Shown one piece after another: positions 759-30,654 of a stretch of DNA of 64,000 nucleotides. A program made the position numbers and the translations under genes. Position 1 is the stretch's first letter. Each line of letters begins with the position of its first letter. Below the pieces are notes generated by a model. It was not told the DNA's origin, searched no databases, and saw only the letters and a program-made list of their open reading frames with translations. Origin of the DNA: a virus; the IMG/VR virus record IMGVR_UViG_3300048914_000231, positions 1 through 64,000 of that record; one strand, written 5' to 3'.

Positions 759-1190
759 TTACCAGGCGCCGCTGCTGTTTTCCGGCACATCCGGGTTGAC
801 GACCGGCAGGTGCGTCATGTACTCGCGTTCAAAAACTTCGCGCGGCACGCCGTGTAGCGTGACCTCATTGGTGAACGGATCGACACTGTCCCACGCGGTT
901 TTCATGCGCTCCGCCACTTCGTGGTGGCAGCCGCCCGGTGCGCGGTCGCACTTGAGCCAGCCGTGAATCTTCGGCCGCATTGTCTTGTAGTCATCGTCAA
1001 TCATGGCGTGAACCTTTGCATTGGCGCAGCCAATGCAGCGTTGGTCCAGACGCGCCGCGGCTTCATGCTCAAGGTGCGCCTCGATCATTCTTTTGATGCG
1101 AACTTCATTTTCTCTCGCGCCGACCACCAGCGAATCGGCGCTATGCGTCACGCCTAATGGGCCGATGGCGTTCAAAAGAGGTTTTCCCAT
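759..1190 (-). CDS. Hypothetical protein with Cys/His motifs, ends SGAW
   Basis: 143-aa ORF directly downstream of a promoter, GGAG SD. Confidence 0.75.
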   Translation of the reverse strand: MGKPLLNAIGPLGVTHSADSLVVGARENEVRIKRMIEAHLEHEAAARLDQRCIGCANAKVHAMIDDDYKTMRPKIHGWLKCDRAPGGCHHEVAERMKTAWDSVDPFTNEVTLHGVPREVFEREYMTHLPVVNPDVPENSSGAW

Positions 1191-1224
1191 GTTCCTGCTC
1201 CGATTCAGTCAGCATCTACATTAT

Positions 1225-1238
1225 AGTCAGCGCTGACT
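1225..1238. promoter_or_regulatory. AGTCA-N4-TGACT palindrome overlapping TATAAT
   Basis: AGTCAGCGCTGACT; minus-strand TATAAT at 1220-1225. Confidence 0.85.
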
Positions 1239-1256
1239 GAATTCATCAGACAAAAG

Positions 1257-1832
1257 TTATGCGGCCACGGGCATGGTGCGCCGCTCGTTACGGATAAGCT
1301 GACCTGCATAGGCCGGGGCGACGCCGTGCTTGCGTGCGAGCCTGGCAAGTTCGCCGCGGCCCTTATGCGATGCAGCCCAATCGCGACGCAAGCGTTCGAC
1401 AAGTTCGTCCGAATACTTTGCGCAATAGTGGTCCATGCCACGAATAAGCGTGCCATGCTCTCTCTTGTCATCTTCATTTTCCTGACGGCTGCCCCATCGT
1501 AGATTGCTCAGTCGATTATTTGCAGTATTGCCATCATTGTGGCAGCCCTCCCGCTTGTCTTTCGGCGCCGGGCCGACAAATGTCAGTAGTACCGCACGAT
1601 GTATCGCCACATTGCCGTTTTTGGTCGGCGTGCACAAGTGCGCGTACAGATAGCGCTTCTCTGCATCCAGACGCGGCGCAAGAATCTTTTCCTTCATTAC
1701 ACGTGAATATACCTTTCCGGTTCGACTTTGCTGCTCAATCGTCCTGGTAAGCGACTTGATCCGCCCGAGGTCGGAGACCGCATACCAGCCTTCGTACCCC
1801 GGGATTTCTTTCCAATTTTCCACAATCAGCAT
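1257..1832 (-). CDS. NUMOD4-HNH homing endonuclease
   Basis: ENWKEIPGYEGWYAVSDLGRIKS (NUMOD4); IHRAVL..F..GCHNDGNTANNRLSNLRWG..EN (HNH_3); C-terminal HTH-like tail. Confidence 0.9.
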   Translation of the reverse strand: MLIVENWKEIPGYEGWYAVSDLGRIKSLTRTIEQQSRTGKVYSRVMKEKILAPRLDAEKRYLYAHLCTPTKNGNVAIHRAVLLTFVGPAPKDKREGCHNDGNTANNRLSNLRWGSRQENEDDKREHGTLIRGMDHYCAKYSDELVERLRRDWAASHKGRGELARLARKHGVAPAYAGQLIRNERRTMPVAA

Positions 1833-1837
1833 CTTTA

Positions 1838-1851
1838 AGTCAGTGATGACT
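1838..1851. promoter_or_regulatory. AGTCA-N4-TGACT palindrome between -10 and HNH start
   Basis: AGTCAGTGATGACT; minus-strand TATAAT at 1853-1858. Confidence 0.85.
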
Positions 1852-1873
1852 GATTATATCAAATTGCTTTAAA

Positions 1874-2473: not shown

Positions 2474-2489
2474 GTGTTTCCTTTCGTGG

Positions 2490-2909
2490 TTACCACGTGG
2501 GTGTGGAGGTGGGAATATCGGCGATCTTTGCTTCCAGCTCCTTGATCAATGCGCCCATGTCATTGCGCAGCTGGTTCATTTCCGCAGTCTGTTTGTTGAA
2601 CATGTCGAGCAAAACGGCATTATCATTCTCCAGCTTTCTGATCTTGTCCGCCGCCATGTGACCGCCGCTGACAAACTGGCGATTTATCTCCTGCGTTTCA
2701 ACGTATATGAAACGCCGGTAGAAGTCCCGCAGGCTGATCGGGGTATTGCTTTCGTCCCTGAATTCGACATCCCTGACAACGAATTTGCCTTCCTCGGTGG
2801 CAGACAATGCAATACTCGCGCTGGCAAGACTCGCGCCGGTGATGGTGAGAGTCCCTTTGCTTATTGTTGGGAAGGTTTCGGCGTCGGTGGCCTTGTCGTC
2901 TTTCACCAT
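2490..2909 (-). CDS. Hypothetical coiled-coil protein
   Basis: Start moved to the ATG after an AAGGAG SD; overlaps upstream stop. Confidence 0.65.
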   Translation of the reverse strand: MVKDDKATDAETFPTISKGTLTITGASLASASIALSATEEGKFVVRDVEFRDESNTPISLRDFYRRFIYVETQEINRQFVSGGHMAADKIRKLENDNAVLLDMFNKQTAEMNQLRNDMGALIKELEAKIADIPTSTPTW

Positions 2910-3244
2910 GTCTCCTTTCCTTGTGAGCTTTCGGGCAGGTCGCACCCTTCGGCTTCGGTTCTCTTCCTGCCGATCGGCAGGTCATAGTCGGTGCGTGGCG
3001 GCGCCTTGATGTCCGGGAATGTCGGGCGCGTAGCGACGGGCTTGAGCTCAACCTCCAGTCTCGTGCAGCCAATCAGGTCGTGCAGCATATCCCATTGCGT
3101 CTTGTCGCGACTGTTGACCCGGCATGTGATGGTCAGGGTGGCTTCGCTATCCATGTGCATTGCGACAGACCCTGTCAGGGTATCTGCCGTTTTCCTGTGA
3201 TGATCTACCTTGACCTGTATGTCGTCAACGATCGTCTTCACCAT
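2903..3244 (-). CDS. Hypothetical protein
   Basis: 113-aa ORF coupled to both neighbours. Confidence 0.65.
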   Translation of the reverse strand: MVKTIVDDIQVKVDHHRKTADTLTGSVAMHMDSEATLTITCRVNSRDKTQWDMLHDLIGCTRLEVELKPVATRPTFPDIKAPPRTDYDLPIGRKRTEAEGCDLPESSQGKETW

Positions 3245-4131
3245 GCGCCAAACTCCTGGTATTCACTGGACAGGCGCTGGTTTTCGATTTCCTGCAGCTT
3301 GGCGAAATCGATCGTGCGCACCTTTTCCAGTTCGACGTAGAAGTTGCCGCCGGCGGCGTGATCCGCGACCTGACGCCAGTGGTTGAGACTTGACTCACAA
3401 TCGCCTTGTGGCAGTTCGATGTAATCGTAATCGGACACGGCTGTCGGGCGCATCCTGAAGATTAGGCGGTGGCCCAGCTTGCCCGACCCCACGTACACCT
3501 CTTCCATGACGAATTCTTCGCCGCCGATATGGTTGCGCTTGCCAAAGCCGGCCTTGCGCATCACCGTGACGCTCATGGGTCCGGACAGTGTGACGCGGCG
3601 GTCCGGCTTGGGCATTCCACCCAGCCGTTCCGTCATGATCTGGGCCAGGTTTTCCAGTGCCGCGACAGCTTCGGGGCTGAGCGTCTTTTTCGCTTCCTTC
3701 ATTGCTGCCTCTTTGTCGATCTCTTCATTATTTCGCTTTTTCGGGTTGAGATTCGCCATCACTTTCTCAATTTCTTCGAATGTGATGGTGGACGAGCTTG
3801 TCGCCGCCGTCGTCATTGACTCTTTACCCAGCATGTCGTCCATTATGGATTTGCGCATGCTGCCCTGCAACTCTTCCGTCATCAGTCTTGACATGACGGA
3901 TTTGCCCATTTTGCGACCGCCCAAGAAAACCAATGATTCGCTGGGCTTAAAACCTTCCATCATCTTCTTGATGCTCTGGTACTGCGATTTCCACTTCTCT
4001 TCCTGCTTCCCGCACAATTTATCCAGCCCGCCGGCCGCCTTGATGGACTCGACGTCGAAAAAGGCCCGTGGACTTTCGTCCACAGCCTTCATGATTTCAA
4101 ATACGGCCGAAGCCGGATTCTTAGAGTCCAC
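3238..4131 (-). CDS. Hypothetical protein, ends FGAW
   Basis: Probable GTG start at 4131 with GGAG SD lying inside the duplicated sbcC tail. Confidence 0.7.
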
Positions 4132-8063: not shown

Positions 8064-8426
8064 TCAGCGTACGCGTATGGAACGTTTGATGACCGCCTCG
8101 CTCCTGGTCGGGTCGATGCGAAAGCGCACCAGCGGCAGTCCGCGGTACTTGACACCGTCAAACAGGAAGAAGCTGTGTTCGCCGTAGAAGTCGTTGATAT
8201 GCGTAAGGTGGATGCGCTTGGCGCCGTTCTTTTTCCAGATCACGCCGACCGCCTCGATACCCATGTCGCGGCACCTGGCCAGGGTCGATTCCTCGATCAG
8301 CCAGGCCTGCTTGCGGCGGTGTATCTTGCGCGACGTCCGGTGGGCCAGGTACAGCCTGTTGCCCGCCGGCGTCTCGTAGAACATGCCCGTGAAGGCGCCC
8401 ATCACGGTGTGCTTAGTTCGCGGCAT
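8064..8426 (-). CDS. Hypothetical basic protein
   Basis: 120-aa ORF within the operon. Confidence 0.7.
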   Translation of the reverse strand: MPRTKHTVMGAFTGMFYETPAGNRLYLAHRTSRKIHRRKQAWLIEESTLARCRDMGIEAVGVIWKKNGAKRIHLTHINDFYGEHSFFLFDGVKYRGLPLVRFRIDPTRSEAVIKRSIRVR

Positions 8427-9636
8427 CGGTGTTCGTCTTGATGGCCGGGCAATCGCCGCCGCACACGCAATCCATACCCATGCAGATCGGCACGTTTTTC
8501 ATCGACGGCAGGGTGCTGTCCGGGTGTACCTGGCTTGCAGCATCGGAACGTTCGTCAGCACTTGCTACACGGGGCGCCGGTCGCTGGGCCAGCATGTCTT
8601 CCGCCAGCATCTTGATATAGGCATGACCGGCACTTTTGGCCGATGCCGTGATCTCGCGCAATCCGGAAAGTACCCACGATGGCAGCACTGTGGCATCCCG
8701 CGCGTCGCCTGCTTGTGCTGGAGCGTCGTAGTTGAAGTTGCAGGTTGCTCGACTGGTGCAGCCGCAGTTTGGATACTGGCACTTCTTGCCATCCCCTTGA
8801 CCGGGCAGAGGTGCGCGGGCGAGGGCTGCGCGGGCCTTTACTAACGCCGCGTGAGTGCGCATACCCGGCGATGCGACCCCACGCATGATGCACCAGTCCA
8901 ATTCCGCCAGCAGACCGTCTGTGTTCACTGCCGCTACGCTCGGCTCTGCGCGGCGTGACACGGCTTCGTAGATCGCTCCATCACTCGCGCTTGACGTGGT
9001 GGCCGCAGTGGATGCGAGGTAAGGCGCAACGTGGTCCCATCGGCACCATGCGCCATCCTCGGCGTGCGACATCCATTCGCGATCCTTGCCGGGAACCAGC
9101 TTGTAGCGCGGAATGACAGCCGCCCCGTCCTTCTGGCTGACTGCGGGCGATGCGAGGGCGGCGCGGGCCGCATCCCATCCATGGGTGAACGCGATACGCG
9201 CATCCATCGAACGTTGCACGACGGACTGATGCGGGTTGTTTGGTATGGGGTACATCGAGTCGATGGCGCGCATGTAAGACGCCCGCTCATCTGCTGCTTG
9301 CCGGCTGACTGCGGGCGATGCGAGGGCGGCGCGGGCCTGCCATGCAGCCCATAGTTTTGGCACTGGATAAATGAAGTACTGTCCTTCATCATTTTTGCTA
9401 AGATTTTCGGAATAGCCCCTTGGTGCTGCGCCCGGATTATCTTCGCGATACCACGTCTCGAAAAGCGCCCGCTCATCTGCCGCTACGCTCGGCTCTGCGC
9501 GGCGGGCGAGATTGATCAGGGCATGCAAATCGAAGGCATCATTGCCCTTGCCCGCGCGTGCGAGCCATTGGGCGATGCCCTCCACTCGTTGTGTCAGTTC
9601 GTCCAGGTCGATGCCTGCGGTGTTTTGACTGTTCAT
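8413..9636 (-). CDS. Mosaic hypothetical protein with repeated linker peptides
   Basis: RRAEPSVAA x2, ARAALASPAVS x2, ADERA x2, encoded by exact DNA repeats. Confidence 0.7.
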   Translation of the reverse strand: MNSQNTAGIDLDELTQRVEGIAQWLARAGKGNDAFDLHALINLARRAEPSVAADERALFETWYREDNPGAAPRGYSENLSKNDEGQYFIYPVPKLWAAWQARAALASPAVSRQAADERASYMRAIDSMYPIPNNPHQSVVQRSMDARIAFTHGWDAARAALASPAVSQKDGAAVIPRYKLVPGKDREWMSHAEDGAWCRWDHVAPYLASTAATTSSASDGAIYEAVSRRAEPSVAAVNTDGLLAELDWCIMRGVASPGMRTHAALVKARAALARAPLPGQGDGKKCQYPNCGCTSRATCNFNYDAPAQAGDARDATVLPSWVLSGLREITASAKSAGHAYIKMLAEDMLAQRPAPRVASADERSDAASQVHPDSTLPSMKNVPICMGMDCVCGGDCPAIKTNTDAAN

Positions 9637-9927: not shown

Positions 9928-10257
9928 TCACCCACCCAGCCGCGCGATCGCGTCTAGCACGTCCTGCACGTTCTCGATGCTGGTACGCATCAGGGCTTCT
10001 ACCGGCATTACGGCGTGAACCTTGCGCGCCTCCAGCTTCTTCCCTCTTGCCGCAGTGCCGACGAATTCGAAGCTGTCATGCCATTCATGCAGCGGGCGCG
10101 ACCACACATTGCCATCCAGATCGCGATACACGACAGTGGCCATGAAATCGGGACGCGTGGCGTTCAGGTTCGCCACCGCAACGATGGCGTATTCATTGCC
10201 GTGACGTTTGTGGCGCCAGATGTCGTCGGTCGACGGTTGACGTGCAGCTTGTTCCAT
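9928..10257 (-). CDS. DUF1653-like SH3-fold protein
   Basis: WRHKRHGNEYAIVAVA..VVYRDLDGNVWSRPLHEW. Confidence 0.7.
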   Translation of the reverse strand: MEQAARQPSTDDIWRHKRHGNEYAIVAVANLNATRPDFMATVVYRDLDGNVWSRPLHEWHDSFEFVGTAARGKKLEARKVHAVMPVEALMRTSIENVQDVLDAIARLGG

Positions 10258-10613
10258 TAAAATGCCCCCCATTGGTTGTATAGGTCCGCTTCCTTCAGAG
10301 GCGGGTCAAACGGCGTATCGTCCGGTTGTGTTTCTTTTTCGATGTCGACTTCGGGCCAGACCGCATGCTTGCCGTACTTGCCCTTGTCTGCCGAAATCGT
10401 CATGTTCAACAGCCTGAGAACTTCGATATCGAAGAATTCCCGGTTCGGCGGTGACTTCAGGCCAGTCTCGGGATTGGTTGACGGCTCGGCCTTCGCGTCG
10501 CGCAGCCACATCAGGTAGCCGGCGTTTTGCGTATAGACCGCCTCCACCGTTTTGCCCTTGTGCTTGCCAAACGGTATTGTATCTTTCAGCCCCAGCCTGC
10601 TGTCGACTCCCAT
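10257..10613 (-). CDS. Protein with ExoX C-terminal/DUF3820-like FGKHKG domain, ends WGAF
   Basis: IPFGKHKGKTVEAV..GYLMWL. Confidence 0.7.
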   Translation of the reverse strand: MGVDSRLGLKDTIPFGKHKGKTVEAVYTQNAGYLMWLRDAKAEPSTNPETGLKSPPNREFFDIEVLRLLNMTISADKGKYGKHAVWPEVDIEKETQPDDTPFDPPLKEADLYNQWGAF

Positions 10614-11037: not shown

Positions 11038-12078
11038 TTAGGCAAACAGCTTGTTCAGTTCGGCAATCGCACCGGCCGCGCGAATCTGGTCGGCCAGGGC
11101 ATTCATGCCGATGCGCTTACCGTCCCATTCGGTGAAGCCCTTGGACGGCTCGGGCAGCTTGCCCATGTCGACCAGCGCCTGAATCGTCGACAGTTCCGGG
11201 TTGAAGTAGGCAATGCCGTCGTCGGTAAAGGACAGACGGATTTTGCATTCTTCGAACGGCTTGGTCAGCTTCGACTTCTGGCACTTGATCTTGATGTCCT
11301 GGCCCACGAATTCCTTCGTGCCGGCCACGACCTTCGTGACTTTGTCGCGCGCCAGGCTCATGCGCACCGTCGAGTAGTACTCCATGGCGCCACCGCCCGG
11401 GGTCGTGGTCGGATCGCCATACACGACGCCCGGCCTGGTGCGAATCTGGTTCAGGTAGATGAAGGTGGCGTTGTAGTCTTCGGCCGCGATCGCCATCGAT
11501 TTGAGCGTGGTCGACGTCACGCGCGCCAGCGCGGTCGTGTCGTTCATGGTCAGTTCGTCCATCGCCTTGCCGGCCGACGACGCCGGCACCGCCGACGCGA
11601 TCGAGTCCATCACGATGGCGATCGGCGCCCTCTCGTGAATCACGCCGCGCTCGCGAATCCACTGTGCGTACGCCAGTGCCTGCATGTTGCCCTCTTCCCA
11701 CGTGCGCGGCTTGCGATAGGACCAGTACGGCGGCGTCAGGTCGAGTCCGAAGCCGTTGGCCGCAACTTCCTGGTTGAACGAGCGTTCCCAATCGCGAAAA
11801 CCGGCGGCGCCGCCCATCTTCTGCGCGAAAGCCATCCAGAAGGTCGCCAGCGCGGTCTTGCCGGCCGACGATGGTCCGTACACTTCGACCAGCCGGCCCT
11901 GCGGCAGGCCGCCGTCAACGCGGCCGGAAATGGCCAGGTTCAGCGGAATGTAGCCAGTATCGATGAAGTCCGTCACGGTTGCCGATTCATCGTTGCCGCC
12001 CAGCTTCTTGTCGAACTCTTCCGCGAGGTCGGCGACAGTGGTGCCCTTCAGGACCGGGCGTGCGTAAGTGGTGGTCAT
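11038..12078 (-). CDS. recA: RecA/UvsX-family recombinase
   Basis: GGLPQGRLVEVYGPSSAGKT, IVMDS, LNQIR..YGDPTTTPGG. Confidence 0.93.
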   Translation of the reverse strand: MTTTYARPVLKGTTVADLAEEFDKKLGGNDESATVTDFIDTGYIPLNLAISGRVDGGLPQGRLVEVYGPSSAGKTALATFWMAFAQKMGGAAGFRDWERSFNQEVAANGFGLDLTPPYWSYRKPRTWEEGNMQALAYAQWIRERGVIHERAPIAIVMDSIASAVPASSAGKAMDELTMNDTTALARVTSTTLKSMAIAAEDYNATFIYLNQIRTRPGVVYGDPTTTPGGGAMEYYSTVRMSLARDKVTKVVAGTKEFVGQDIKIKCQKSKLTKPFEECKIRLSFTDDGIAYFNPELSTIQALVDMGKLPEPSKGFTEWDGKRIGMNALADQIRAAGAIAELNKLFA

Positions 12079-12087: not shown

Positions 12088-13092
12088 TTACTTTTGAAAC
12101 GGTTTAACGAATTCGTCCAGGTTGCGCAGGATCGATGCGAATGCCAGTTCTTCGCAGACGCTGGCAAAGGCCTCCCTGTCGAGCGCGCCCTGAATGACCT
12201 TGATCTCGTCCTTCTTCGGCGGCGCCACGCGCAGCAGCTGCATCAGCTGGAAGTTGCGCTTGTAGATCAGGCGCCCCTGACCGGGCCAGGTATCGGCATG
12301 CTTCTGGCGCGCGCGCGAGTCATCCTCGTCGCCCATGTAGGTCGCCTCCATGTACCCGATCAGGTCGTGCTCGCATGCCCCCAGCAGGCGCTTTTGCACC
12401 TTGCCCTTGGGCTTGTGGTCGCCCTTCGCACACGCGAGCCAGAAATTGCGCATGCTCCCGAATTCAGCGATGAAGTCTGGCGCACCCTTGTCGCCCAGGC
12501 CACCGACACCCGAAATGCAGTCCGAGGTGTCGCCCGTCAGAATCTTGATTTCAAGATATTCGAGCGGCGTTCTGCAGCCGGTCTTGTCGTAGAAGTTCTG
12601 CGCATTGATGAATTTGGCGTCATCGCGCGGGTCTTTCCACCAGACGTTCTTGCGCACCAGCTGGACCCAATCGCCGTCGCCAGACAGCAGGCCGACCATG
12701 TTGTTCGGGTCGTTCGACAGCTTGGCCACGAAGTAGCCGGCCAGGTCGTCCGCTTCCATCTTGTAGGCCGTCATCTGACGCACGCCGAGGGCGGCTAGCA
12801 GGCGCTCGATGTAGGGCTTCTGTTTGGCGTAGGATTCCTTCATCGCGACCTTCTCGGGCGTGTCGCGACGGTTGGATTTGTACTCGGGATGCAGGGTGAA
12901 GCGCCAGTCGGCGCGACCGTCCCAGAGGACGAAGGGTGTGTAGCCGGGCGTCTCGATCAGCGCCTGGCGAATCGTCTTGATGATGCCATATGCGGCTTGG
13001 GTTTCGAGCGTGCCGCAGGTCAGGCGTGTCGCCTGCTGGGAAGCGTAACCGAGGCTGTTGCCATCAATTAACAGTGTGTGGGTATTGGCCAT
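12088..13092 (-). CDS. 5'-3' exonuclease / flap endonuclease (T4 RNase H / PolA N-terminal type)
   Basis: LIDGNS, EYKSNR, EADD, SGDGD, GDTSDCISGVGGLG. Confidence 0.92.
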   Translation of the reverse strand: MANTHTLLIDGNSLGYASQQATRLTCGTLETQAAYGIIKTIRQALIETPGYTPFVLWDGRADWRFTLHPEYKSNRRDTPEKVAMKESYAKQKPYIERLLAALGVRQMTAYKMEADDLAGYFVAKLSNDPNNMVGLLSGDGDWVQLVRKNVWWKDPRDDAKFINAQNFYDKTGCRTPLEYLEIKILTGDTSDCISGVGGLGDKGAPDFIAEFGSMRNFWLACAKGDHKPKGKVQKRLLGACEHDLIGYMEATYMGDEDDSRARQKHADTWPGQGRLIYKRNFQLMQLLRVAPPKKDEIKVIQGALDREAFASVCEELAFASILRNLDEFVKPFQK

Positions 13093-13108
13093 GTTCTCTC
13101 CAGAGGGT

Positions 13109-13136
13109 AAAAGGGCCAGCACACCGGCCGGCCCTT
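13109..13136 (-). terminator. Possible intrinsic terminator after SSB
   Basis: AAGGGCCGGC/GCTGGCCCTT stem followed by a short U run. Confidence 0.45.
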
Positions 13137-13999: not shown

Positions 14000-14072
14000 G
14001 GTTTGCAGTCTTTCGTAGTGGTAGTAGTTTGTCAGCGCCTTTAGACTTGCGTCGTTCAGCACTTACATTATA

Positions 14073-19135: not shown

Positions 19136-19151
19136 ATTCGCCTTCGTGTTG

Positions 19152-19844
19152 TCAGGTTGAGGTTTTATTATCGCAACGCAGTGCAGGATTGAGCACGAAT
19201 CGCTCTTGGGGGTCTTGCACCATGATGCCGAAGCTGTACAGCAGCGCACAGCCAACGGCCACGTGACTGCCGGCGGTGCCGTCTGCCCAGTCCAGTTCCT
19301 TGACCAGGCGCGCTTTGTATTGCGCTTTCGTGAGACCGCCACGCAGCAGCATGTCGCATACGATGCGCAGGTACTGTGGCCCGCCCTTAGCGAACGGGTT
19401 TTGCCCGCGCGGGAGCATGGCGCGCATGTCGTTGACGCGGTTGTTTCTGCACAACGTGGCGGCGGCCTCCTTCGCCTTCACGCTCTTGGCGCCGAGCGCA
19501 TCGATCACGCGCTGGTCCTCGACGCTGACCGCGTAGGCAACCTTGGCTACCGGGGTGGTGCGCTCGACGATTGCCGCCACGTTCGGCTGCGTCACCGGGA
19601 TCGGCGACGTCACCATTGGGTGGCTGGGCGTCGGCGTGGCCAGCTGCGCCTTCCTGCGCGCATTCTCGTGCTGGGCCAGCAAGTCCTTGATGTTGACAAT
19701 CTCGCGCAGCGCCTGCAGACGCTCGTACGCCACCTGACCGCATGCCTGGTAGGCGACGCATGCCCGGCATACGGCCGAATCCGTGCTGTACGTGCTGGCG
19801 GCGCCAAAGCAACCCGGCGCCTGCTGTTCTGGTGTCGCGCTCAT
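19152..19844 (-). CDS. Hypothetical protein with N-terminal Cys cluster, possible C-terminal winged helix
   Basis: PGCFG..CRAC..C. Confidence 0.7.
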   Translation of the reverse strand: MSATPEQQAPGCFGAASTYSTDSAVCRACVAYQACGQVAYERLQALREIVNIKDLLAQHENARRKAQLATPTPSHPMVTSPIPVTQPNVAAIVERTTPVAKVAYAVSVEDQRVIDALGAKSVKAKEAAATLCRNNRVNDMRAMLPRGQNPFAKGGPQYLRIVCDMLLRGGLTKAQYKARLVKELDWADGTAGSHVAVGCALLYSFGIMVQDPQERFVLNPALRCDNKTST

Positions 19845-20610: not shown

Positions 20611-21297
20611 TTATGCAGCCTCCAACTGTTCGCCGCGTGCGCGCGCCCAGCGGCGATAACCCGCCTCCGACAGCTTGCGGCGTGTTTCTTCGGTCGCCTT
20701 ACGACCCTTGAGAGCCTCAGACAGTTTGCGCTTCGTCTCTTCGGCCAGCGGCTTGCCGGTGAACAGACTGCGCAGCTTTTCGATATGCTCGGCGCTGACC
20801 TTGCGACCCTTGCCGGATGCCGACAGTCTGGCCCGGGTCTCTTCCGATACTTGATACCCTGTCTCTTTTTTCATCTTTTCCCTTTCGATCGCCGCTTCCC
20901 GAAGGCGCTGCCTGGTCTCTTCTGAAATTGGCTTGCGCGCTTTGTGCGATGCGCGCATCTTGGCCTTTGTTTCTTCGCTGTGCTTCTTGCCCTTGTGAGG
21001 CGCTTCCGAGAACATGGCGACGTTGTAGCCGTTTCGCACCACGTCCAATTCATCGATCACTTGCTGCTCCCGTTCCAATAATCCATCTATCGGGTGTCGC
21101 TCCATGACCACAATCTTGAAAGCGCCTTCACCATATTCATTCCACGCCTCTTGCAGCTTGTATGAGTGATGCTTGTTGCCTCGCAGCTTGCTCAAGTGGG
21201 TCTTGAAGCGCCGGTGTAGATTGTGGGCGCTGCCGACATACTTCTTGCCGGTAGCGATATGTTCGATGCAGTAAATGCCAGAGTCTTTCAGGGTCAT
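20611..21297 (-). CDS. GIY-YIG homing endonuclease with NUMOD3 repeats
   Basis: SGIYCI..KKYVGSA..R..H..E..GYN; HSEETKAKM/SEETR repeats; start set to MTLKD because the upstream ATG overlaps the -10 box. Confidence 0.92.
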   Translation of the reverse strand: MTLKDSGIYCIEHIATGKKYVGSAHNLHRRFKTHLSKLRGNKHHSYKLQEAWNEYGEGAFKIVVMERHPIDGLLEREQQVIDELDVVRNGYNVAMFSEAPHKGKKHSEETKAKMRASHKARKPISEETRQRLREAAIEREKMKKETGYQVSEETRARLSASGKGRKVSAEHIEKLRSLFTGKPLAEETKRKLSEALKGRKATEETRRKLSEAGYRRWARARGEQLEAA

Positions 21298-21337
21298 GAT
21301 GGGTAAGCCAATTCGTTGTGTCGACCTACCCATTATA

Positions 21338-21365: not shown

Positions 21366-22568
21366 TTACTTCTTACTTCCGAATATCCTCTGCGCGATAC
21401 CGCCGGCGACTTCACGGTCGACCTTGGACAGCTTGCTGATGAACGACTTCTCCAGACCGTGCGCGAATGAACCGCGCATGATACCGATCTGGCTCGCGTA
21501 GATCAGCGTACGCGGCGAAATCGTGTCGCTCATCTTGGCGCCATCGAATGCCTGGCGAATTTCGGTTGCGAACTGGACCATCTTGTCGGCATCCTTCGGG
21601 GTCAGCTTGGCCCGGTTCTGCAGCATGATGATTTCCTTGTCCTTCGGCATGTACTGCTTGTGGATCACCATGCCGAAACGGTCGTAGTTCGCGCTGTTCT
21701 GGATCAGCGTGCCCTGATACAGGCCCGACTCGTCGCCCGAACCGTTGGTGTTGCCGGTGGCGACCAGACGGAAGTTCGGGTGCGGCTCGATCACGCGCAT
21801 TTCGGCCGGTGCTTCCTTGATCACCAGTGCCTTGCCTTCGAGGACCGGCTGGTACACGGCCAGCACGCTCGGCTGGGCGAAATCGTATTCGTCGAGCACG
21901 AGCGTCCAGCCATGTTTCATGGCCAGGGCCAGCGGGCCAAGTTCGAAGTGGGTGTTACCGCCCTTGACGGTCCATTGCCCGATGATGTGGCTCTCTTCGG
22001 TATTGGCCGAGTGCTGCACGCGCAGCATGGGGCGGTTGGTGCGGGCGCAGACCTGTTCGAACAGTTCCGACTTGCCCGAGCCCTTGTGGCCCCAGACGTA
22101 GCACGGGATGTTCACCTCCAGCGCCAGAATCACGTCCTTCAGTTCGCCCGGCAGGTAGACGTATTCCTCGCTGACCTTGGGCACCATGTTCGGCTGGTCG
22201 TGCGAAGCCAGCACCGAGATCGGGATCGGGCCACCCTTGGCGTTCATGGCTTCGGGGTCGCTGCCAAGTTCGAACACTTCGTGCAGCGGCTTCTTGATGA
22301 TGCCGCTGGGCGGGACCAGTGCGGCGGCGTTCGCGGCCGGCGTTTCCTTCACCGCGGCAGGCGCCGCCCCGGCAGCTGCAGCGGCTTCCTTCGCCTGTTT
22401 TTGGGCGATCAGCTGCTTGGCATACGGGGAGTAAATTTCGGCAAGCGGGTGCTTTTCCTGGTAGTCGGCCAGGCTCATGCCCGGGTGCGCCGACTCCAGG
22501 TGCTTGCTGATCACGTGTACTTCCGCGCCGCATTCTTCGCAGGTGATCTTGTCGTTCTGGTCTGCCAT
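21366..22568 (-). CDS. CobS-like MoxR AAA+ ATPase with N-terminal C2H2-like zinc finger
   Basis: CEEC..H....H; GHKGSGKS; LVLDEYD; ATGNT; DRF. Confidence 0.9.
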   Translation of the reverse strand: MADQNDKITCEECGAEVHVISKHLESAHPGMSLADYQEKHPLAEIYSPYAKQLIAQKQAKEAAAAAGAAPAAVKETPAANAAALVPPSGIIKKPLHEVFELGSDPEAMNAKGGPIPISVLASHDQPNMVPKVSEEYVYLPGELKDVILALEVNIPCYVWGHKGSGKSELFEQVCARTNRPMLRVQHSANTEESHIIGQWTVKGGNTHFELGPLALAMKHGWTLVLDEYDFAQPSVLAVYQPVLEGKALVIKEAPAEMRVIEPHPNFRLVATGNTNGSGDESGLYQGTLIQNSANYDRFGMVIHKQYMPKDKEIIMLQNRAKLTPKDADKMVQFATEIRQAFDGAKMSDTISPRTLIYASQIGIMRGSFAHGLEKSFISKLSKVDREVAGGIAQRIFGSKK

Positions 22569-22698: not shown

Positions 22699-23355
22699 TT
22701 AGCCGGCCGACTGATCGAACCCCAATGCGCTCAACGTCTTGAGGATCGGCGCCACCGGAACGGTCAGAGGCATTGGCTTTTCGTAGTCCGGCAGATGTTT
22801 TTCAAGTTCCGGCATCTTCTCCACGATTTGCTTGTACGTCTTGACCGAATACAGAAACAGGCGCAGTTCGTCGCGGGCGCGTTTTTCATCTTCGCGAATC
22901 TTGTGTGCCTTCTTGAGCAGGTCGGCCAATTTGGCCTCCCAGCTTTCCATGTCAGCGGGGTTTCGCACGGGGTTGGTCCGGTCCGTGTAGTCCATGCCCT
23001 GATCAATGAAGTCGCTGCGACTGAAGCGGGTATTTATCGGGTGCCGGAACGGTTCGAACGATACTGGTATGCCCCAATGGCCGCTGCGCAGCTGTTCGTC
23101 CGACCATGTGGCGACACAGACCGGGTTGGCATTCGCCTTAATGTTTTCGGATGCGATCAGCGGGAACCATTCGGGCGGCAAATTCTTCGTCGCTGCCGGG
23201 AATTCTTTCGGTACACGCTCCAGGCACAGGGCACGCACGCGCGCCTCGGTGGCGCGCGCGAGTTCTTCCTTGCGCTTCGGGATAGTCGTGCCTTTTTCGA
23301 TCACGGAATCGATGATTTTCCGGCGAATTTCCTTGTTCAGTGTTGTCATGGTCAT
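22699..23355 (-). CDS. Nmad5-like (nucleotide-modification-associated domain 5) protein
   Basis: LNKEIRRKII N-terminus and LYSVKTYKQIVEKMPELEKHLP..PL C-terminus. Confidence 0.6.
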   Translation of the reverse strand: MTMTTLNKEIRRKIIDSVIEKGTTIPKRKEELARATEARVRALCLERVPKEFPAATKNLPPEWFPLIASENIKANANPVCVATWSDEQLRSGHWGIPVSFEPFRHPINTRFSRSDFIDQGMDYTDRTNPVRNPADMESWEAKLADLLKKAHKIREDEKRARDELRLFLYSVKTYKQIVEKMPELEKHLPDYEKPMPLTVPVAPILKTLSALGFDQSAG

Positions 23356-23358: not shown

Positions 23359-25284
23359 TTATTTTGCCAGCAAGAGTCTCAATTCACGCATGATGAGGGG
23401 CGGGAGTTCCTTGACGTCATGGATCACCATCGCCTTCGGGTAGAACTCACGCACCGAATCATCCTTGATACCGATGCCAATCATGTTCACGCCGGACATC
23501 GACATGCGCTCCACGACCTTTTTCAGGTGCAGGTTCAGGCCGTCGTAGTCGCTCGTGTAGCAGGCCGGATGGCCGTCGGACAGCACGATCATGATCTTGC
23601 CCTTTTCCTTGCGCCGCAACAGGCGCATGCCGGCCAGTTCGACCGATTCGCCGTCGACGTTGTTGGCCAGGCTGCTGCAGTTGGGCAGCCAGGCGAAGCG
23701 CTGCTTGACGCCGGTAGACATGCGCTCGTCGAAGCCCTTCAGGATCGGCATGTACAGCGGCTCGACCCGGGTGAAGCCGCGCCCGAGCATTTCCTCTTCC
23801 TTGAGCACGTCTTCCGACTTCAGATAGCTGTGGCCACCGGTAGTGAAGCAGATCACTTCGCTGGTGATGCCGATCCGGTCCAGGGTCGAGGCCAGCGCAT
23901 ACGCCGCTTTGGCCGCCGTGTGAATCTTCCCGCCCGACATGGAGCCGGACATGTCGATCACCAGTTCGACCGCCACGTCCTTCGTCAGCACTTCCTGACG
24001 CTGGCGGAACACGCGGTCGTCGCCGGTCGACAGGCGATGTAGCGCCGCCGGGTTGACGCGGCCCGAACGCTGGCCGGGCGACCAGCGCTTGAGGCTGCGC
24101 GCGCTGATGGCGCGCTCCAGGTCTTTCTGCATCGGGCCGACCATGTGGTCGACTTCGTCCTGCATCGATTGCAGCATGGTCGGCTTGTATTCCGAGCCCA
24201 CCTTGAGCGGTTCGACCACGTCGTGGTCCGTGGTCCAGACGAGGTAGGGCGCCGCCTTGCTCGCGTCGATCACGCCGCTGGTCACCAGCTGCGAGAGCTT
24301 TTCGTCATACGTGTTGGCGAGCTCCTTTTCGATCGCGGACAGGCTGCCGCTGGTGCTGCCGTTGATGTGCGAGGTTATCGTTGCCTCTTCACGGTCGTCG
24401 CTCGGGTCTTCCTCTTCCTCACCTTCGCCCCCGGCAGCCGGGTCTTCCTCTTCGCCCTCGTCCTCTTCCTCGCCCGGCTTCTTTTCTTCCTTCGCCGAGT
24501 CATCGGTCAGACCAGGCTTGAAGCCTTCATCCTCTTCCCCTTCGCTCGGCCCGCCCCCACTGGTCAGCCCGCCCCCGCCACCGCCGGCACCGGGCTTGGT
24601 CATCGACGACATCCCGCTCGACGGCGCCGGCGTCGCGCCCCTGAGTGCCGCGCTGGCCTTTTCGGCGACACTCAGGGCGTCAGCACTGCTGCGCGCGCCG
24701 GCAATCAGCGGCTCCAGCGGCTTGAGCTTGTCGTACACGTCCTGAATATCGGCCATGTGCTGGTCGACGAAGTCCTTGAACACCTGCTGGCCAGCCATGC
24801 CGCGAATCACTGGCATGGTCAGAAGCGCCTCGACCTTTTCCTGATCGCCCGCAGCCTTCGCTTTTTTCAGTTCCGGGATCGTGTAGTTCTCCAGCAGAAA
24901 ACGCCCGGTGCCGGACAGGTTCTCGGCCGACCCTTCGAAGCGCTCGGCCATCAGGCGCTCGATGCGGGTGTCTTCCATCACGTTGTACATGCCGCCGATG
25001 CCCATCGACTGCGCCTTCGGCATGTCGTTGAAATCGGTGAACATGATGTGCGCGACCTCGTGGTCCAGGTAGCCCTGCAGCGCATCCAGCAGTTCCTGGG
25101 TGGCGTTGTCGGGAATGTACGGCAGGTTGACGCGAATCGGCTGACCCTTCGAGTCCGACTGCACATATGCCTGCGTACCCACTTGCGTGACGCTGATTTT
25201 CTTGCCTGCCAAAATCTGCGTGATTTTGACGATCGCCTCGCGCATCACGTGGATACGCTCTGCCATTCCCATTCCCCTGATCAT
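23359..25284 (-). CDS. CobT-like vWA protein (HExxH N-domain, acidic linker, MIDAS)
   Basis: DHEVAH..EDTRIE; E-rich linker; DMSGSM; LSDGHP; GIGI. Confidence 0.9.
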   Translation of the reverse strand: MIRGMGMAERIHVMREAIVKITQILAGKKISVTQVGTQAYVQSDSKGQPIRVNLPYIPDNATQELLDALQGYLDHEVAHIMFTDFNDMPKAQSMGIGGMYNVMEDTRIERLMAERFEGSAENLSGTGRFLLENYTIPELKKAKAAGDQEKVEALLTMPVIRGMAGQQVFKDFVDQHMADIQDVYDKLKPLEPLIAGARSSADALSVAEKASAALRGATPAPSSGMSSMTKPGAGGGGGGLTSGGGPSEGEEDEGFKPGLTDDSAKEEKKPGEEEDEGEEEDPAAGGEGEEEEDPSDDREEATITSHINGSTSGSLSAIEKELANTYDEKLSQLVTSGVIDASKAAPYLVWTTDHDVVEPLKVGSEYKPTMLQSMQDEVDHMVGPMQKDLERAISARSLKRWSPGQRSGRVNPAALHRLSTGDDRVFRQRQEVLTKDVAVELVIDMSGSMSGGKIHTAAKAAYALASTLDRIGITSEVICFTTGGHSYLKSEDVLKEEEMLGRGFTRVEPLYMPILKGFDERMSTGVKQRFAWLPNCSSLANNVDGESVELAGMRLLRRKEKGKIMIVLSDGHPACYTSDYDGLNLHLKKVVERMSMSGVNMIGIGIKDDSVREFYPKAMVIHDVKELPPLIMRELRLLLAK

Positions 25285-25301
25285 GTGTTTCCCCTTTGTA
25301 A

Positions 25302-25315
25302 AGTCATTCGTGACT
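25302..25315. promoter_or_regulatory. AGTCA-N4-TGACT palindrome in the cobT leader
   Basis: AGTCATTCGTGACT; promoter TTGTGA-17-TATCAT at 25325-25353. Confidence 0.85.
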
Positions 25316-25375
25316 GACAACGCTATGATAGACTTGACCCGCAGGAGTCACAAGCTGCACGGTGATCTTTGCCTG

Positions 25376-25404: not shown

Positions 25405-25422
25405 GTGCATGCGTGTGCGTGC

Positions 25423-26381: not shown

Positions 26382-26407
26382 CATATCCTTTTACCCTTCG
26401 TGTTTTT

Positions 26408-27234: not shown

Positions 27235-27418
27235 CCTTCTCCTCCTTTTGACGCGTCAATAACGCGCTCATGTGCACGACAAACGCCGTGATGGTCAGTA
27301 GCGGCACTTCACGCCCGGTGTTGTCGATGATTTTGATCAGGGTCTGGCGACCCTGTGTGAAGTTGTGTTCGGTCCAGGGCATGGTGGCCCTGACCCGCTT
27401 GAACTCGTCGTCAGTCAC
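27227..27418 (-). CDS. Hypothetical protein
   Basis: 63 aa, coupled on both sides. Confidence 0.55.
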   Translation of the reverse strand: MTDDEFKRVRATMPWTEHNFTQGRQTLIKIIDNTGREVPLLTITAFVVHMSALLTRQKEEKDA

Positions 27419-27824: not shown

Positions 27825-29242
27825 GCCGCCTCCTTGATCGATTCGTCTTTCAGTTTCTTGCCCAGCTTGGCCGCCGCTTCGATTGCAAACGCGCGCTCCA
27901 GACTGTCGGCCGTGAACTTGTCGGTGCGCGGTGTCGCGCTGGTGAAGCGCGGCAGGAACAGGCTGTGCAGCGGGTTCGATTCGCTCGGTTTCATGATCAT
28001 GTTGGCGGTGACGGGCATGATCTTGCCCAGCCAGCCATCCTTGTCCGCATCGACCGCGTCGCGCATCGCTTCGCCCTTGATGGCGACGTCGACTTCCAGA
28101 TTGCCGCAGCTGGAACGGCATGTCAGGCTGCCGACGCGGCCCGCATTCTTGGTATTGTCGCGGCCGGCGACGAAGCCGACGATCTCCAGGTCGACTTCGA
28201 ATTCCAGCTTGAGCTTGACCTGCTCCTTGCTGGTGCCGTCCTTCCAGATGGCCGTGCGGCGCTTGAGAATGCCGCCCTCCAGACCGCTCGCCATCCACCC
28301 GCCGGCGATGCTATACGCTTCGTCCAGGCTCTTGACGATCTTGGTGGTGATCAGGCTGATCGACTGCTGCGGCTTGCCTTTCAGCTGGCCGATGATCGCG
28401 CGCAGACGGTCGATGTACGGCGTCTCGCACTTGCCTTTCGGGACCGCGCACTCCAGCGGAATCTGGTCCCACACTTCGAATACCGGGCGCTCATTGGCCG
28501 CAAATGCGCCACCCTGTGCGACCTTGTTCAGAATGCCGTTGCCGATCTCGCGCGCGAGAATCTTGCCGTCGCGCTCGACCAGCATTTCGCCATGTGACTG
28601 TGTGCCCATCGGGAACGTGTTGTGAATGTCTTGCAGCAGCTGGCCGAAGGCCTCGGTCGGGAACATCGTGCCGGCGCGCGAGTACATGAAGACTTCGCCG
28701 GTGTCTTCGTGGTCGATGTTGACGAACATGCCGTCCGCCTTGATCTGCAAGATTTCGCCGTCTTCCCATTCGGTCCAGGCTTCGGGCTTGGCATCCTTCG
28801 GCAGCGAACAGCGCATGTAGGCGGTGTCGGGCACCAAGCCCGGCCAGACCTTGTTGCAGGTTTCGGCCGAGAAGCCCGCGCGCATGTCTTTCAGCAGGAT
28901 GCGCTGGAACAGCTGCGCGCTATCGCCAGTCAAACGTTCGATGTGGTCTGCGATCGCCGTATGCATGGCGCCGCCGGTCAGTGTGCGGTCACGCAGGCGC
29001 GCGATAATGCCCCACGTCTCGTCGGTGAAAGTCGTCCCGCCGGAGAACGTACTGGTGCGCAGTGGCACCGCCCTGATGCCGTACTTGTCGGTGTTGTATG
29101 CGGCGCGCAGCACGCGCTGCAGTAAGGCGTCGCCAGCAACGGCCTTGAGCATCGCGATCTTGTCGTTCTTGCCGGACGTGGCTGCGATCTGGTCCATCAG
29201 GCCCAGAATCTGGTCGGTGTTCATGTCGGGTTTCAGGCTCAT
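27821..29242 (-). CDS. ATP-dependent DNA ligase (T4-like)
   Basis: KADG, HGEM, EGGILK, KLK, SLFLPRF..R.DK. Confidence 0.93.
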   Translation of the reverse strand: MSLKPDMNTDQILGLMDQIAATSGKNDKIAMLKAVAGDALLQRVLRAAYNTDKYGIRAVPLRTSTFSGGTTFTDETWGIIARLRDRTLTGGAMHTAIADHIERLTGDSAQLFQRILLKDMRAGFSAETCNKVWPGLVPDTAYMRCSLPKDAKPEAWTEWEDGEILQIKADGMFVNIDHEDTGEVFMYSRAGTMFPTEAFGQLLQDIHNTFPMGTQSHGEMLVERDGKILAREIGNGILNKVAQGGAFAANERPVFEVWDQIPLECAVPKGKCETPYIDRLRAIIGQLKGKPQQSISLITTKIVKSLDEAYSIAGGWMASGLEGGILKRRTAIWKDGTSKEQVKLKLEFEVDLEIVGFVAGRDNTKNAGRVGSLTCRSSCGNLEVDVAIKGEAMRDAVDADKDGWLGKIMPVTANMIMKPSESNPLHSLFLPRFTSATPRTDKFTADSLERAFAIEAAAKLGKKLKDESIKEAA

Positions 29243-29249
29243 TGTTTCC

Positions 29250-29945
29250 TCATTGTTTGGCTTTACGAAGTTCCGCCATGCGGCGGGCGAATTGCAGCGG
29301 GGTTTCACCCGGCTGGATTTTTGGCGCGGTCGACCCGGTGCCAGGCGGCAAGGTGGGTGGCAGCTCCACCCTGACCGGATTCCTGATCAGTTCCTGGCGC
29401 AGCTGCTCCATCGACAGCGGCGCCGGTTGTGGTGCCGGCATGGCCTTGATGGCCCGGTCTTCCGGGTAGTCGCCCTGCGACGGGCCGGCGCTGGCCTGAT
29501 TGGTGATCGCGATCGCCAGCGCGTCGACTTTCAGTTCGTCGTTCATGGTCTTCTTCGGCGGCGCCTTCCCGCCAAACGGTCTGGCCGGCTTCGGGATCAG
29601 GGCCGGGTCGGTCAGGTTGGTGATCAGGACGCCGAACTGGCCAGCGGTGGCGACCGGCAGGAACGGCTTGCTCTTGCGCGGGAAGTAGAACAGCGCGGTG
29701 CCGGCCAGCTGCTCCTGCTCGCGCATGCCGGCGGCGATACAGCGGCCCTCGCGCGCGGCCCTGACGCATTCGGCGGTGCGCTCGTTGTTTATGCCCATGT
29801 CAATGTCATGCAGACGTGACAGGCAGGCCGTGTACGCCGGCCCGCGCTCGATTGCCGGGCAGTGTTTCAGGTAGTAGGCGTTGTCAGGGCCGGCGCTGGC
29901 CGTGATCGGGTATTTGGTATCGTGTTCGATGGGTTGATTTTGCAT
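29250..29945 (-). CDS. Hypothetical protein, Cys-containing N-terminus and Pro-rich C-terminus
   Basis: GGAG SD before ATG at 29945. Confidence 0.7.
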   Translation of the reverse strand: MQNQPIEHDTKYPITASAGPDNAYYLKHCPAIERGPAYTACLSRLHDIDMGINNERTAECVRAAREGRCIAAGMREQEQLAGTALFYFPRKSKPFLPVATAGQFGVLITNLTDPALIPKPARPFGGKAPPKKTMNDELKVDALAIAITNQASAGPSQGDYPEDRAIKAMPAPQPAPLSMEQLRQELIRNPVRVELPPTLPPGTGSTAPKIQPGETPLQFARRMAELRKAKQ

Positions 29946-29962
29946 TTTTGCTCTCCGTGTTT

Positions 29963-30157
29963 TTACCAACTGGCCCACGAATCGTTCGTGCGCTCGGTCG
30001 TGCCTTCTTTCTCTTTTTCGATGCTCTGGTAATTGATGAAGCAGCGAATCTTCCAGATCATGTCCTTGCGAATCGCCTCCTGAACATGGGGCGACAGACG
30101 GTTGAGAAAATCGGACACCGCCTGTTTCTGTACAAATTTCAATGCCTCGTTCGCCAT
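29963..30157 (-). CDS. Small hypothetical protein, ends WASW
   Basis: TGATG coupling with upstream gene. Confidence 0.6.
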   Translation of the reverse strand: MANEALKFVQKQAVSDFLNRLSPHVQEAIRKDMIWKIRCFINYQSIEKEKEGTTERTNDSWASW

Positions 30158-30654
30158 CACCAACTCGCCCAGCCGGCGCCGCGGTCTATATCGTCAAAGC
30201 CATCTTCGACGATGACGTCGTTTTCGTCCGCATCGCCCAACCCCAGACCGAAGTAGCCGATGGTCGCCTGGCGCTCGGCCGTGCCGTAGTGCTCGTTGAT
30301 GGCAGTAGCAAGCTCGGCCTCGTGCAGCGACCGCACATGCCCGGAAATGACCTTCCTGCCCAGGCCAAATGTCGGGGCCGACGCCTTCTTGTACACGCCC
30401 TTGCCGGCGCGCGGCGTCGTTTTTTCCTTCAGAATCTTGCTGCACTCGCCCTGCACCTTGCCGTCCGAACCCCTGATGATCTTGACCTGGCCGCCGCCGG
30501 TATTGGCTTCAATCTTGCCCCAGCGCTGCAGCAGGATTGCGGCGCCGGCAACCCCTTCTGCAGTCTGCTCGGTAATCGTTACCGTTTCATAGAACTTGGT
30601 GCCGCCATCGTGCTCCAGATAGTTCAATGCAACCTGATATGTCCTGTTTCCCAT
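30157..30654 (-). CDS. WGR-domain-like protein, ends WASW
   Basis: YLEH..GTKFYE..QRWGKI..GQVK..EK..KGVY. Confidence 0.65.
   Translation of the reverse strand: MGNRTYQVALNYLEHDGGTKFYETVTITEQTAEGVAGAAILLQRWGKIEANTGGGQVKIIRGSDGKVQGECSKILKEKTTPRAGKGVYKKASAPTFGLGRKVISGHVRSLHEAELATAINEHYGTAERQATIGYFGLGLGDADENDVIVEDGFDDIDRGAGWASW

Follow-up and report, generated by a model that had tools for sequence, protein, structure and literature searches.

An aromatic tag at the C-terminus of unrelated phage proteins

Several unrelated proteins of one phage were found to end in the same short aromatic tag, Φ-[GA]-x-Ω-COOH, in which Φ and Ω are aromatic residues and x is mostly a small one. The window, which is the whole stretch of DNA that was analyzed, comprises positions 1 to 64,000 of IMG/VR virus record IMGVR_UViG_3300048914_000231. 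This 64-kb window is the initial part of a complete 114,062-bp phage genome that has direct terminal repeats at its ends and carries nearly every gene on the minus strand. In each orthologous family, the tag is kept by selection on the peptide. The tag is probably a C-terminal docking motif with one receptor for unrelated non-structural proteins.

A first-pass annotation had reported five tagged termini, and direct reading of the sequence found all of them on the minus strand. The genes at 759-1190, 3238-4131, 10257-10613, 29963-30157, and 30157-30654 end in ..PENSSGAW, ..EYQEFGAW, ..LYNQWGAF, ..TNDSWASW, and ..DRGAGWASW, respectively. The protein bodies had been described as unrelated, and they show no mutual similarity, since blastp matches between them consist of the tails alone. 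One body is a WGR domain, one is an ExoX-like_C (FGKHKG) domain, and the remainder are orphans.

Enrichment was computed on our own gene call of the whole genome, which holds 141 genes. The strict pattern, [WF][GA][AS][WF]-COOH, was observed 4 times compared to 0.009 expected (Poisson P 3e-10). The broad pattern, [WFY][GA]x[WF][AGS]?$, was observed 6 times compared to 0.11 expected, and the two additional termini, ..WANW and ..WGTWG, sit outside the window. Terminal Trp is found on 14 of the 141 predicted proteins, where 1.85 were expected (P 7e-9). Open reading frames that are not genes (n=1780) show no such bias, with a terminal W in 46 of them and the motif in 1. The pattern was chosen post hoc from the data, but the P values were judged robust to any reasonable correction. 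The effect is larger than first stated. Among the outcomes that would refute the idea, the first-pass annotation had listed a tag that is not enriched over background and not conserved in orthologues; both enrichment and conservation were seen.

The tag is conserved in orthologous families

The protein at 30157-30654 (minus strand, 165 residues) is encoded after the primase gene and ends in R-G-A-G-W-A-S-W-COOH, with tail codons at 30160-30171. It has no Pfam match of its own at E below 0.01. Its homologues P0008-P0012 carry WGR PF05406, however, and its positional orthologue in Rhizobium phage RHEph10 matches this family at E 9e-16. When an AlphaFold2 model built from a 43-sequence alignment was searched with Foldseek, PARP1, PARP2, and PARP3 came out on top with their WGR domains, at a probability of 0.98-0.99 and an E of only 0.02-0.1. 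Pfam on the homologues and Foldseek on the model thus place the protein among the WGR-domain proteins. The model is laid out as a folded part, residues 1-134, with predicted local distance difference test (pLDDT) values above 90, followed by an acidic disordered linker of ~25 residues and then the tail, with values of 54-67 for linker and tail.

Across 12 database homologues of the WGR protein, down to 32% identity, R158, W162, and W165 never change, in contrast to the linker, which is hypervariable in length and sequence. Among complete homologues in viral contigs, 52/52 end in Φ-[GA]-x-[WF], mostly as R-G-x-x-W-G-S-W. A single-protein search of the phage collection returned no relatives of this protein, and profile or large-database searches were needed to find them. 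Scanning bacterial genome contigs with the WGR alignment also returned no relative, so prophage copies did not point to a host.

Directly downstream of the WGR gene lies a gene for a protein of 64 residues (29963-30157, minus strand) that ends in ..N-D-S-W-A-S-W-COOH, with tail codons at 29966-29977. Its positional homologues, from about 22 loci, end in RPxWG[ST]W. In a 13-sequence alignment of this family, at 8-33% identity, the tail Trp, W61, is the sole invariant column. The gene is missing from L001/L010, the closest WGR locus, in which the homologue of the 29250 gene comes immediately after the WGR gene. Many more distant loci do have the 64-residue gene. This distribution suggests that the small gene has been repeatedly lost or gained.

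In the protein of the third family (10257-10613, minus strand, 118 residues; tail codons 10260-10271), a variable linker joins an N-terminal ExoX-like_C (FGKHKG) domain to the tail Y-N-Q-W-G-A-F-COOH. Residues 15-37 match PF20600 at E 2.4e-6, scoring 27.2 bits against a cut-off of 26.5. Among ExoX_C homologues of up to 135 residues, counted as 50%-identity representatives, 39/61 have the tail Y-x(2-3)-W-G-[AST]-F/W, and W115 and G116 are invariant across 40 sequences. The 40-sequence alignment was too diverse to locate loci, but WGAF is kept in the syntenic orthologues in L064, L066, and L067.

The gene at 3238-4131 (minus strand) lies directly downstream of the SbcC/SbcD-like genes and encodes an orphan of 297 residues ending in ..EYQEFGAW (tail codons 3241-3252). 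Orthologues at 43-53% identity all end in [DE]Y[QK]EFGAW, and more distant syntenic orthologues end in ..IGFGSW and ..TFGSW. Genes at the same position in other phages are tagged as well, with ..TWATW in SSU5 and ..DFGGWA and ..DIGGWA in nickie. Single-protein searches of viral contigs found no relatives of the 3238 and 10257 proteins, for which profile or large-database searches were again needed.

Selection acts on the peptide rather than on the DNA

One rival explanation is that the tail is a by-product of nucleotide signals at gene ends, such as start overlaps of the form NNA-TGG-TRA, Shine-Dalgarno-like TGGGGN, or a cassette recombination boundary. NNA-TGG-stop with the next ATG embedded is indeed seen in 7/13 Trp-ended genes. 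As the first-pass annotation had noted, the 3238 gene is the only one of the five with a start/stop overlap of this kind, the next ATG falling inside its Ala-Trp codons (GCATGGTGA). The junction is TGATG at 30157 and TAATG at 10257, and spacers follow the 29963 and 759 genes. At several loci, the start of the gene that comes after the WGR gene falls within the tail codons, and the 29963 gene, absent from L001, has W-A-S-W codons on both its flanks.

The tail codons of 37 distinct WGR-family gene ends were then surveyed. GGG, GGT, GGA, and GGC are all used for the tail Gly, with GGG the commonest. For Ser, AGY and TCN codons are both found, and each of the three stop codons is used. The gene downstream of the WGR gene may overlap it, abut it, or stand behind its own ribosome-binding site. 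This synonymous codon diversity, with the varied stops and junctions, indicates that selection acts on the peptide and not on the DNA. Tags also persist where there is a spacer and a separate ribosome-binding site, or where no gene is coupled (759, 29963, and many WGR loci), and the tail is the sole conserved element in families at 8-33% identity. With the motif in only 1 of the 1780 non-gene open reading frames, the nucleotide explanation is largely refuted, and we consider it highly improbable.

The wording of the tag shifts between phage lineages

The element had been described as SSU5-like and as encoding CobS and CobT, and this agrees with the Pfam matches, the core genes, and their order. 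A genome of ~100-120 kb, common core genes, and a kept gene order place the phage in the SSU5-like supergroup. The core set consists of DnaE, DnaB, primase, ligase, CobT/CobS, gp32-like SSB, RecA, and SbcCD, at 22-64% identity to SSU5, nickie, and RHEph10. CobS was the one core gene not returned by that comparison, but each of these three phages has an annotated CobS beside CobT. The DnaE-type polymerase is ~36-44% identical to those of RHEph10, nickie, ANB28, and SSU5 (tblastn / blastp comparison). In the window, Pfam identified CobT (vWA), a CobS-like MoxR AAA+ protein, a sigma factor, a gp32-like SSB, a FEN-like exonuclease, RecA, and SbcC/SbcD-like proteins. The core gene order agrees with the annotations of the relatives, and Pfam backs the gene identities. 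Of the cultured relatives, SSU5 is a Salmonella phage, nickie a Pseudomonas phage, RHEph10 and RHph_X66 Rhizobium phages, and ANB28 a Stenotrophomonas phage.

Tagged proteins of the relatives were listed with the same gene caller as for the phage studied here and with a regular expression. In RHEph10, six proteins end in [NH]-P-x-[FY]-G-[RM]-F, among them the WGR protein and the product of the gene after it. The termini in RHph_X66 are YGRF, FGAF, and FGAF, and the wording in these two phages can be summed up as FG[RA]F. SSU5 has ..GWATW on the post-primase protein and ..TWATW on the post-SbcC protein, plus ..AWDW. ANB28 has four xGxW ends. About 14 proteins of nickie end in Φ-G-x-[WF]-[AGS], including the post-primase protein and one that is annotated as Mu Gam-like. 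A small residue trails the last aromatic residue in 14/14 nickie tags compared to 1/22 elsewhere (P 4e-9), and the tag ends in F in 9/9 cases in RHEph10 and RHph_X66 compared to 6/27 elsewhere (P 5e-5). The wording therefore shifts in step over many unrelated proteins in each lineage, as would be predicted if the tags co-evolved with a single reader.

The tagged proteins of this phage showed almost no homology by blastp to those of SSU5, nickie, and RHEph10. The sole exception was the match between the 96660 protein and the nickie 82645 protein, both of which are tagged. Orthology across the supergroup therefore rests mostly on gene position. A Pfam search of 19 tagged proteins of the relatives returned only WGR and DUF5983.

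The lineage-dependent wording bears on a second rival explanation, namely that the tails are variant host β sliding clamp motifs or SSB-tip mimics that hijack a universal host hub. The clamp pocket and the motif that fits it are close to universal among bacteria, and the SSB-partner pockets hardly vary there either, in contrast to the wording of the tails. Clamp-binding and SSB tails are, on the other hand, the classical examples of C-terminal motifs that replication proteins have in common, a DnaE polymerase but no annotated clamp is present in the phage, and the 10257 tail, Q-W-G-A-F, is loosely like Q-L-S-L-F. The clamp motif (QL[SD]LF / QxxLxL) was not found in the tails, however. Gln occurs only sporadically and is missing from most of them, and where Leu is required, at the fourth position, the ExoX_C family and 52/52 WGR homologues have Ala, Ser, or Thr. 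The tails also have no D-D-D-I-P-F or IPF, and there is no tagged SSB; the gp32-like SSB ends in ..DDLLSDLPE. This explanation is, in our view, very unlikely.

Tail architecture and the placement of tagged genes

In the 26 residues before the tail, the mean net charge is -3.1 in tagged proteins compared to 0.0 in other proteins (P 5e-5). The tails had been said to stand mostly behind an acidic or flexible linker. The charge statistics support the acidic character, and the linkers of the WGR and ExoX_C proteins, the ones tested, are flexible and variable. In the WGR protein, which is the sole tagged body modeled, the tail lies outside the folded domain.

This layout, a disordered linker with a hydrophobic tip, resembles that of C-terminal degrons as known from the ssrA, SulA, and MuA tags. 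The exposed aromatic C-terminus could therefore mark the proteins for timed destruction by a host or phage protease such as Lon, ClpXP/ClpAP, FtsH, or HslUV. Most tagged proteins are small and accessory, and RHEph10 and nickie encode an HslV-family peptidase. No proteasome/HslV-family gene is present in this phage, though, and the motif, Φ-G-small-Ω with an Arg that is invariant in the WGR family 8 residues from the end, is far tighter than known non-polar degrons such as LAA-COOH. None of the tails has an LAA-like or a basic (R-R-K-K-A-I-like) degron terminus. Moreover, core-like proteins encoded beside primase, RecA, and SbcCD are tagged across the supergroup, which fits recruitment better than disposal. 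A role as a degron appears quite unlikely. Since a degron is itself a docking tag, this alternative overlaps with the docking explanation.

The tagged genes adjoin the primase, RecA, and SbcCD genes or sit in blocks of small accessory genes, inside replication/recombination operons. In this phage, nickie, and RHEph10, the structural modules encode no tagged proteins. A capsid hub, which the first-pass annotation had offered as a candidate, is disfavored by this placement. As a cargo-loading peptide, the tag would attach to the portal or to the inside of an HK97-type capsid, and counter-defence proteins and proteins that bind DNA ends would then be packaged and injected together with the phage DNA. 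Among the tagged proteins are indeed a DNA-end binder of the WGR type in this phage and, in nickie, a Gam-like end protector, and encapsulin cargo-loading peptides and the McdB Trp offer parallels. However, the tagged genes lie in replication/early blocks, with none in the structural module, and a siphovirus head would have to accommodate a large load of six to eighteen different cargo proteins. A literature search found no virion proteomics for these phages. The chance that the tag loads cargo seems remote to us, and the same applies to the capsid interior as its reader.

A proposed docking mechanism

We return to the docking explanation. The tag would be a short linear motif made of an aromatic residue, Gly or Ala, a small residue, and an aromatic residue at the free C-terminus. 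An Arg or Tyr is often present 7-8 residues from the end. The carriers would be the WGR DNA-break-binding domain, the ExoX_C domain, the post-SbcCD protein, and small orphans, and all of their tails could fit a single common receptor, at a hydrophobic pocket that has a basic patch beside it. In this way, the tagged set might be recruited or handled as a group in the replication/recombination phase of infection. We infer both the docking action and a single reader from these patterns. Such a reader would more likely be encoded by the phage, or at any rate evolve fast, than be a hub of the host that is conserved universally.

Several observations weigh against this explanation. The first-pass annotation took the tag for a shared C-terminal docking or sorting signal to one hub; the shared, selected, and enriched peptide is confirmed, but neither a hub nor a binding partner for the tag was found. 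The wording also varies by protein family within one phage (WASW, WGAF, FGAW), so the reader must be tolerant or there could be more than one. The gene caller behind the tagged lists of the relatives is crude. Both Rhizobium phages have F-ended tags, and thus the data do not separate a phage-encoded reader from a host-specific one. Finally, some tail codons double for the next gene, as with the ATG in GCATGG at 3238 and the G-rich, Shine-Dalgarno-like WG codons, and a minor contribution at the nucleotide level has to be allowed for.

Candidate readers

The reader could be one of the core replication/recombination proteins of the phage (DnaE, DnaB/primase, ligase, gp32-like SSB, RecA, SbcCD, or a core protein of 240 residues), which we find plausible but by no means assured. 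Core genes are conserved in all tag-bearing relatives and are therefore candidates. On the minus strand of the window they include the genes for the RecA-like protein (11038-12078), the FEN-like 5'-3' exonuclease (12088-13122), and the gp32-like SSB (13160-14062), all identified by Pfam, and for the DnaE polymerase (15665-19342), identified by Pfam and tblastn. By blastp, the RecA-like protein, gp32-like SSB, and DnaE are common to RHEph10, nickie, and SSU5. The FEN-like exonuclease is not in the blastp list, but all three phages have a 5'-3' exonuclease annotated at the same position.

The 240-residue core protein (34602-35324, minus strand; phrog_2500) is a candidate either as reader or as helicase partner. 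It is common to all four complete relatives, and its gene always lies between the PhoH and DnaB genes. This position was seen in the phage studied here and in SSU5, nickie, RHEph10, and ANB28, as well as in over 30 viral contigs. AlphaFold2 gave an all-α model with a pLDDT of 93.7, and comparison of the model with the PDB gave no significant match (Foldseek E above 0.7; VIA-align best Z 5.6). The protein may have an undescribed fold and act as a loader or partner of the helicase. We also considered whether it is a hidden sliding clamp. This was rejected because the model is all-α, is not clamp-like, and has no significant match in the PDB.

Another candidate hub put forward at first pass was the CobS/CobT pair. 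The CobS-like MoxR AAA+ protein (21366-22568; Pfam AAA_5 and CbbQ_C) and the CobT-like vWA protein (23359-25320; Pfam CobT_C and VWA) are encoded on the minus strand, and between them lies a minus-strand gene for a protein of 218 residues with no assigned function (22699-23355). vWA domains are known elsewhere as peptide readers. The co-occurrence test that the annotation proposed gave no support to this hub, since Vibrio phage ICP2 has CobT and CobS but no tag; of the further phages with CobT, which include Gordonia and Roseobacter phages, the test covered ICP2. We regard the AAA+/vWA pair as an unlikely reader. Residues 4-59 of the CobS-like protein match the ROS/MucR zinc-finger DNA-binding family (Pfam E 7.7e-7), which is unusual for a cobaltochelatase subunit. 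This N-terminal match hints at a DNA-linked role for the phage pair.

A host protein, including a protease, is a rather doubtful reader, yet one that deserves more weight than the CobS/CobT pair. Something outside all of these classes is just as unlikely as that pair.

A bolder reading, which we hold only tentatively, is that the tag forms a private addressing code in the SSU5-like phages of Salmonella, Pseudomonas, Rhizobium, and Stenotrophomonas. A 4-5-residue aromatic tag with lineage-drifting wording would address proteins to one phage-encoded hub, which could be the CobS/CobT motor or a core protein such as the 240-residue neighbor of PhoH and DnaB. By way of this hub, the replication/recombination machinery would be joined by sensors of DNA ends and by small accessory proteins that vary from phage to phage. 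If so, lineage-specific C-terminal docking codes could be a general, undescribed principle by which the proteomes of large phages are organized. A single reader for all the tails would provide the first functional context for dozens of orphan phage proteins, and the reader could reveal the role of the phage CobS/CobT pair or of another core protein. The Φ-G-small-Ω rule can be used to find members of the same network in metagenomic phages, and the lineage-specific wording offers a natural experiment in motif-reader co-evolution.

Comparison with known C-terminal docking peptides

Shared C-terminal docking peptides are well known as a kind. The first-pass annotation knew of no description of this tag, and our literature search likewise found no published account of the motif, its distribution in the SSU5 supergroup, or its lineage wording.

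T7 gp2.5 and gp4 have acidic C-terminal tails that end in Phe and are read by the T7 DNA polymerase. As proposed here, that system is private to the phage, and different replication proteins dock on one phage protein through a flexible acidic tail whose last residue, an aromatic one, is essential. The tagged proteins share the net-acidic segment ending in W or F, which is disordered in the WGR model. However, the T7 acidic runs end in Phe without a Φ-G-x-Ω core, there are two carriers, and the reader is a family-A polymerase, whereas the phages examined here have 6 to 18 mostly orphan carriers and a DnaE-type polymerase.

The tag had also been compared to the SSB tail. This holds as an analogy, but the sequence differs. 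SSB has a disordered linker and a hydrophobic aromatic tip, D-D-D-I-P-F-COOH, which is read by a hydrophobic pocket flanked by a basic patch. In that system, one hub carries the tail and many clients read it, while here many clients carry the tail, and the sequences are unrelated. The clamp tails, which include those of T4 gp43, gp33, and gp55 that bind gp45, bacterial QL[SD]LF, and the archaeal/eukaryotic PIP boxes, are alike in that many unrelated proteins use a short hydrophobic or aromatic C-terminal motif to reach one replication hub. The tags differ from them in having no Gln, a small residue in place of Leu, and lineage-specific rather than universal wording, and no clamp gene was recognized in the phage.

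The P proteins of the archaeal/eukaryotic ribosomal stalk end in ..D-D-D-M-G-F-G-L-F-D-COOH. They resemble the tagged proteins in having an acidic flexible linker, Φ-G-x-Φ, and zero or one residue before the C-terminus, as in ..Y-G-L-F-G of nickie and WGAF here. A single stalk tail is read by several partners. The stalk is an archaeal/eukaryotic ribosomal feature, and its likeness to the tag is in pattern only. To our knowledge, no C-terminal peptide of the P-stalk type is known in bacteria or phages.

In non-homologous end joining, APLF, XLF, and PAXX have Ku-binding motifs that dock on the vWA domains of Ku. Here, too, several DNA-repair proteins use short terminal motifs, with basic residues and a key Trp or Phe, to reach one hub, and the reader is a vWA domain, of which the phage encodes a CobT-like one. 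That system is eukaryotic, though, no Ku is present here, and a link between the CobT-like vWA protein and the tag would be speculative and finds no support from ICP2.

Encapsulin cargo-loading peptides are C-terminal, stand behind flexible linkers, and bind the HK97-fold shell through a small-hydrophobic G-S-L core. McdB has an invariant Trp at its C-terminus, which is reported to dock on the shells of carboxysomes (PMC11321042). Both are C-terminal address peptides behind flexible linkers that bring diverse cargo to one protein shell. Those peptides are read by shells, whereas here the tagged genes are replication-phase genes and the structural genes are untagged.

A second tail class and other C-terminal features

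A second, larger tail class was found in the genome, with the pattern D-[IVLR]-P-x-[SNH]-x(2-5)-W. It is present on the 759, 2490, and 2903 genes and on a gene array at 80-82 kb, beyond the window. The 759 gene (759-1190, minus strand) encodes an orphan of 143 residues that ends in P-D-V-P-E-N-S-S-G-A-W-COOH. The terminus reported at first pass is thus present, but its membership in the tag does not hold, as ..DVPENSSGAW fits D-φ-P-x-[SN]...W better than ΦG[AS]Ω. The orthologue in L064, at 29% identity, keeps the tail as ..D-T-P-E-N-Y-T-G-A-W. Two small Trp-ended genes of this class were absent from the first list, one at 2490-2945 (minus strand) ending in ..ADIPTSTPTW and one at 2903-3244 (minus strand) ending in ..DLPESSQGKETW. 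Their orthologues in L064 end in ..RPQTTPTW and ..DVPEASQGKETW, respectively.

The array outside the window (genome positions 80517-82635, plus strand) consists of small genes downstream of a DEAD-box helicase gene and carries D-φ-P...W tails. One array gene, at 82441-82635, ends in ..EWGTWG and so has the extra small residue at the end that marks the nickie wording. This one genome therefore combines the two tail classes and the two grammars.

Some other termini look like the tag or resemble it in part. Small hydrophobic proteins in L050 (13452-13631), L061 (12922-13131), and L071 (RHph_X66, 43639-43797) end in G-I-W-[FI]-G-[VW]-[WF] and match the regular expression for the tag. Their sequences suggest that they are likely a separate, conserved membrane family with a transmembrane segment, and hence a likely false-positive class for tag scans. 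The small subunits of ribonucleotide reductase, NrdB, end in acidic residues followed by an aromatic one, with ..TLDMEF in this genome (110632-111675, minus strand), ..DKGLEW in nickie (73846-74862), and ..TADDEF in RHEph10 (57454-58416). The RHEph10 glutaredoxin (60116-60364) ends in ..SGDDDF. The NrdB tails are the classical R2 tail that binds R1, and the NrdB and glutaredoxin tails are separate from the tag and not to be pooled with it.

A GIY-YIG/NUMOD3 homing endonuclease gene was also seen in the window, at 20611-21333 (minus strand), between the CobS and sigma-factor genes. The close relative L001 has instead an HNH/NUMOD-like endonuclease gene (8359-8850) inserted between the helicase and primase genes.

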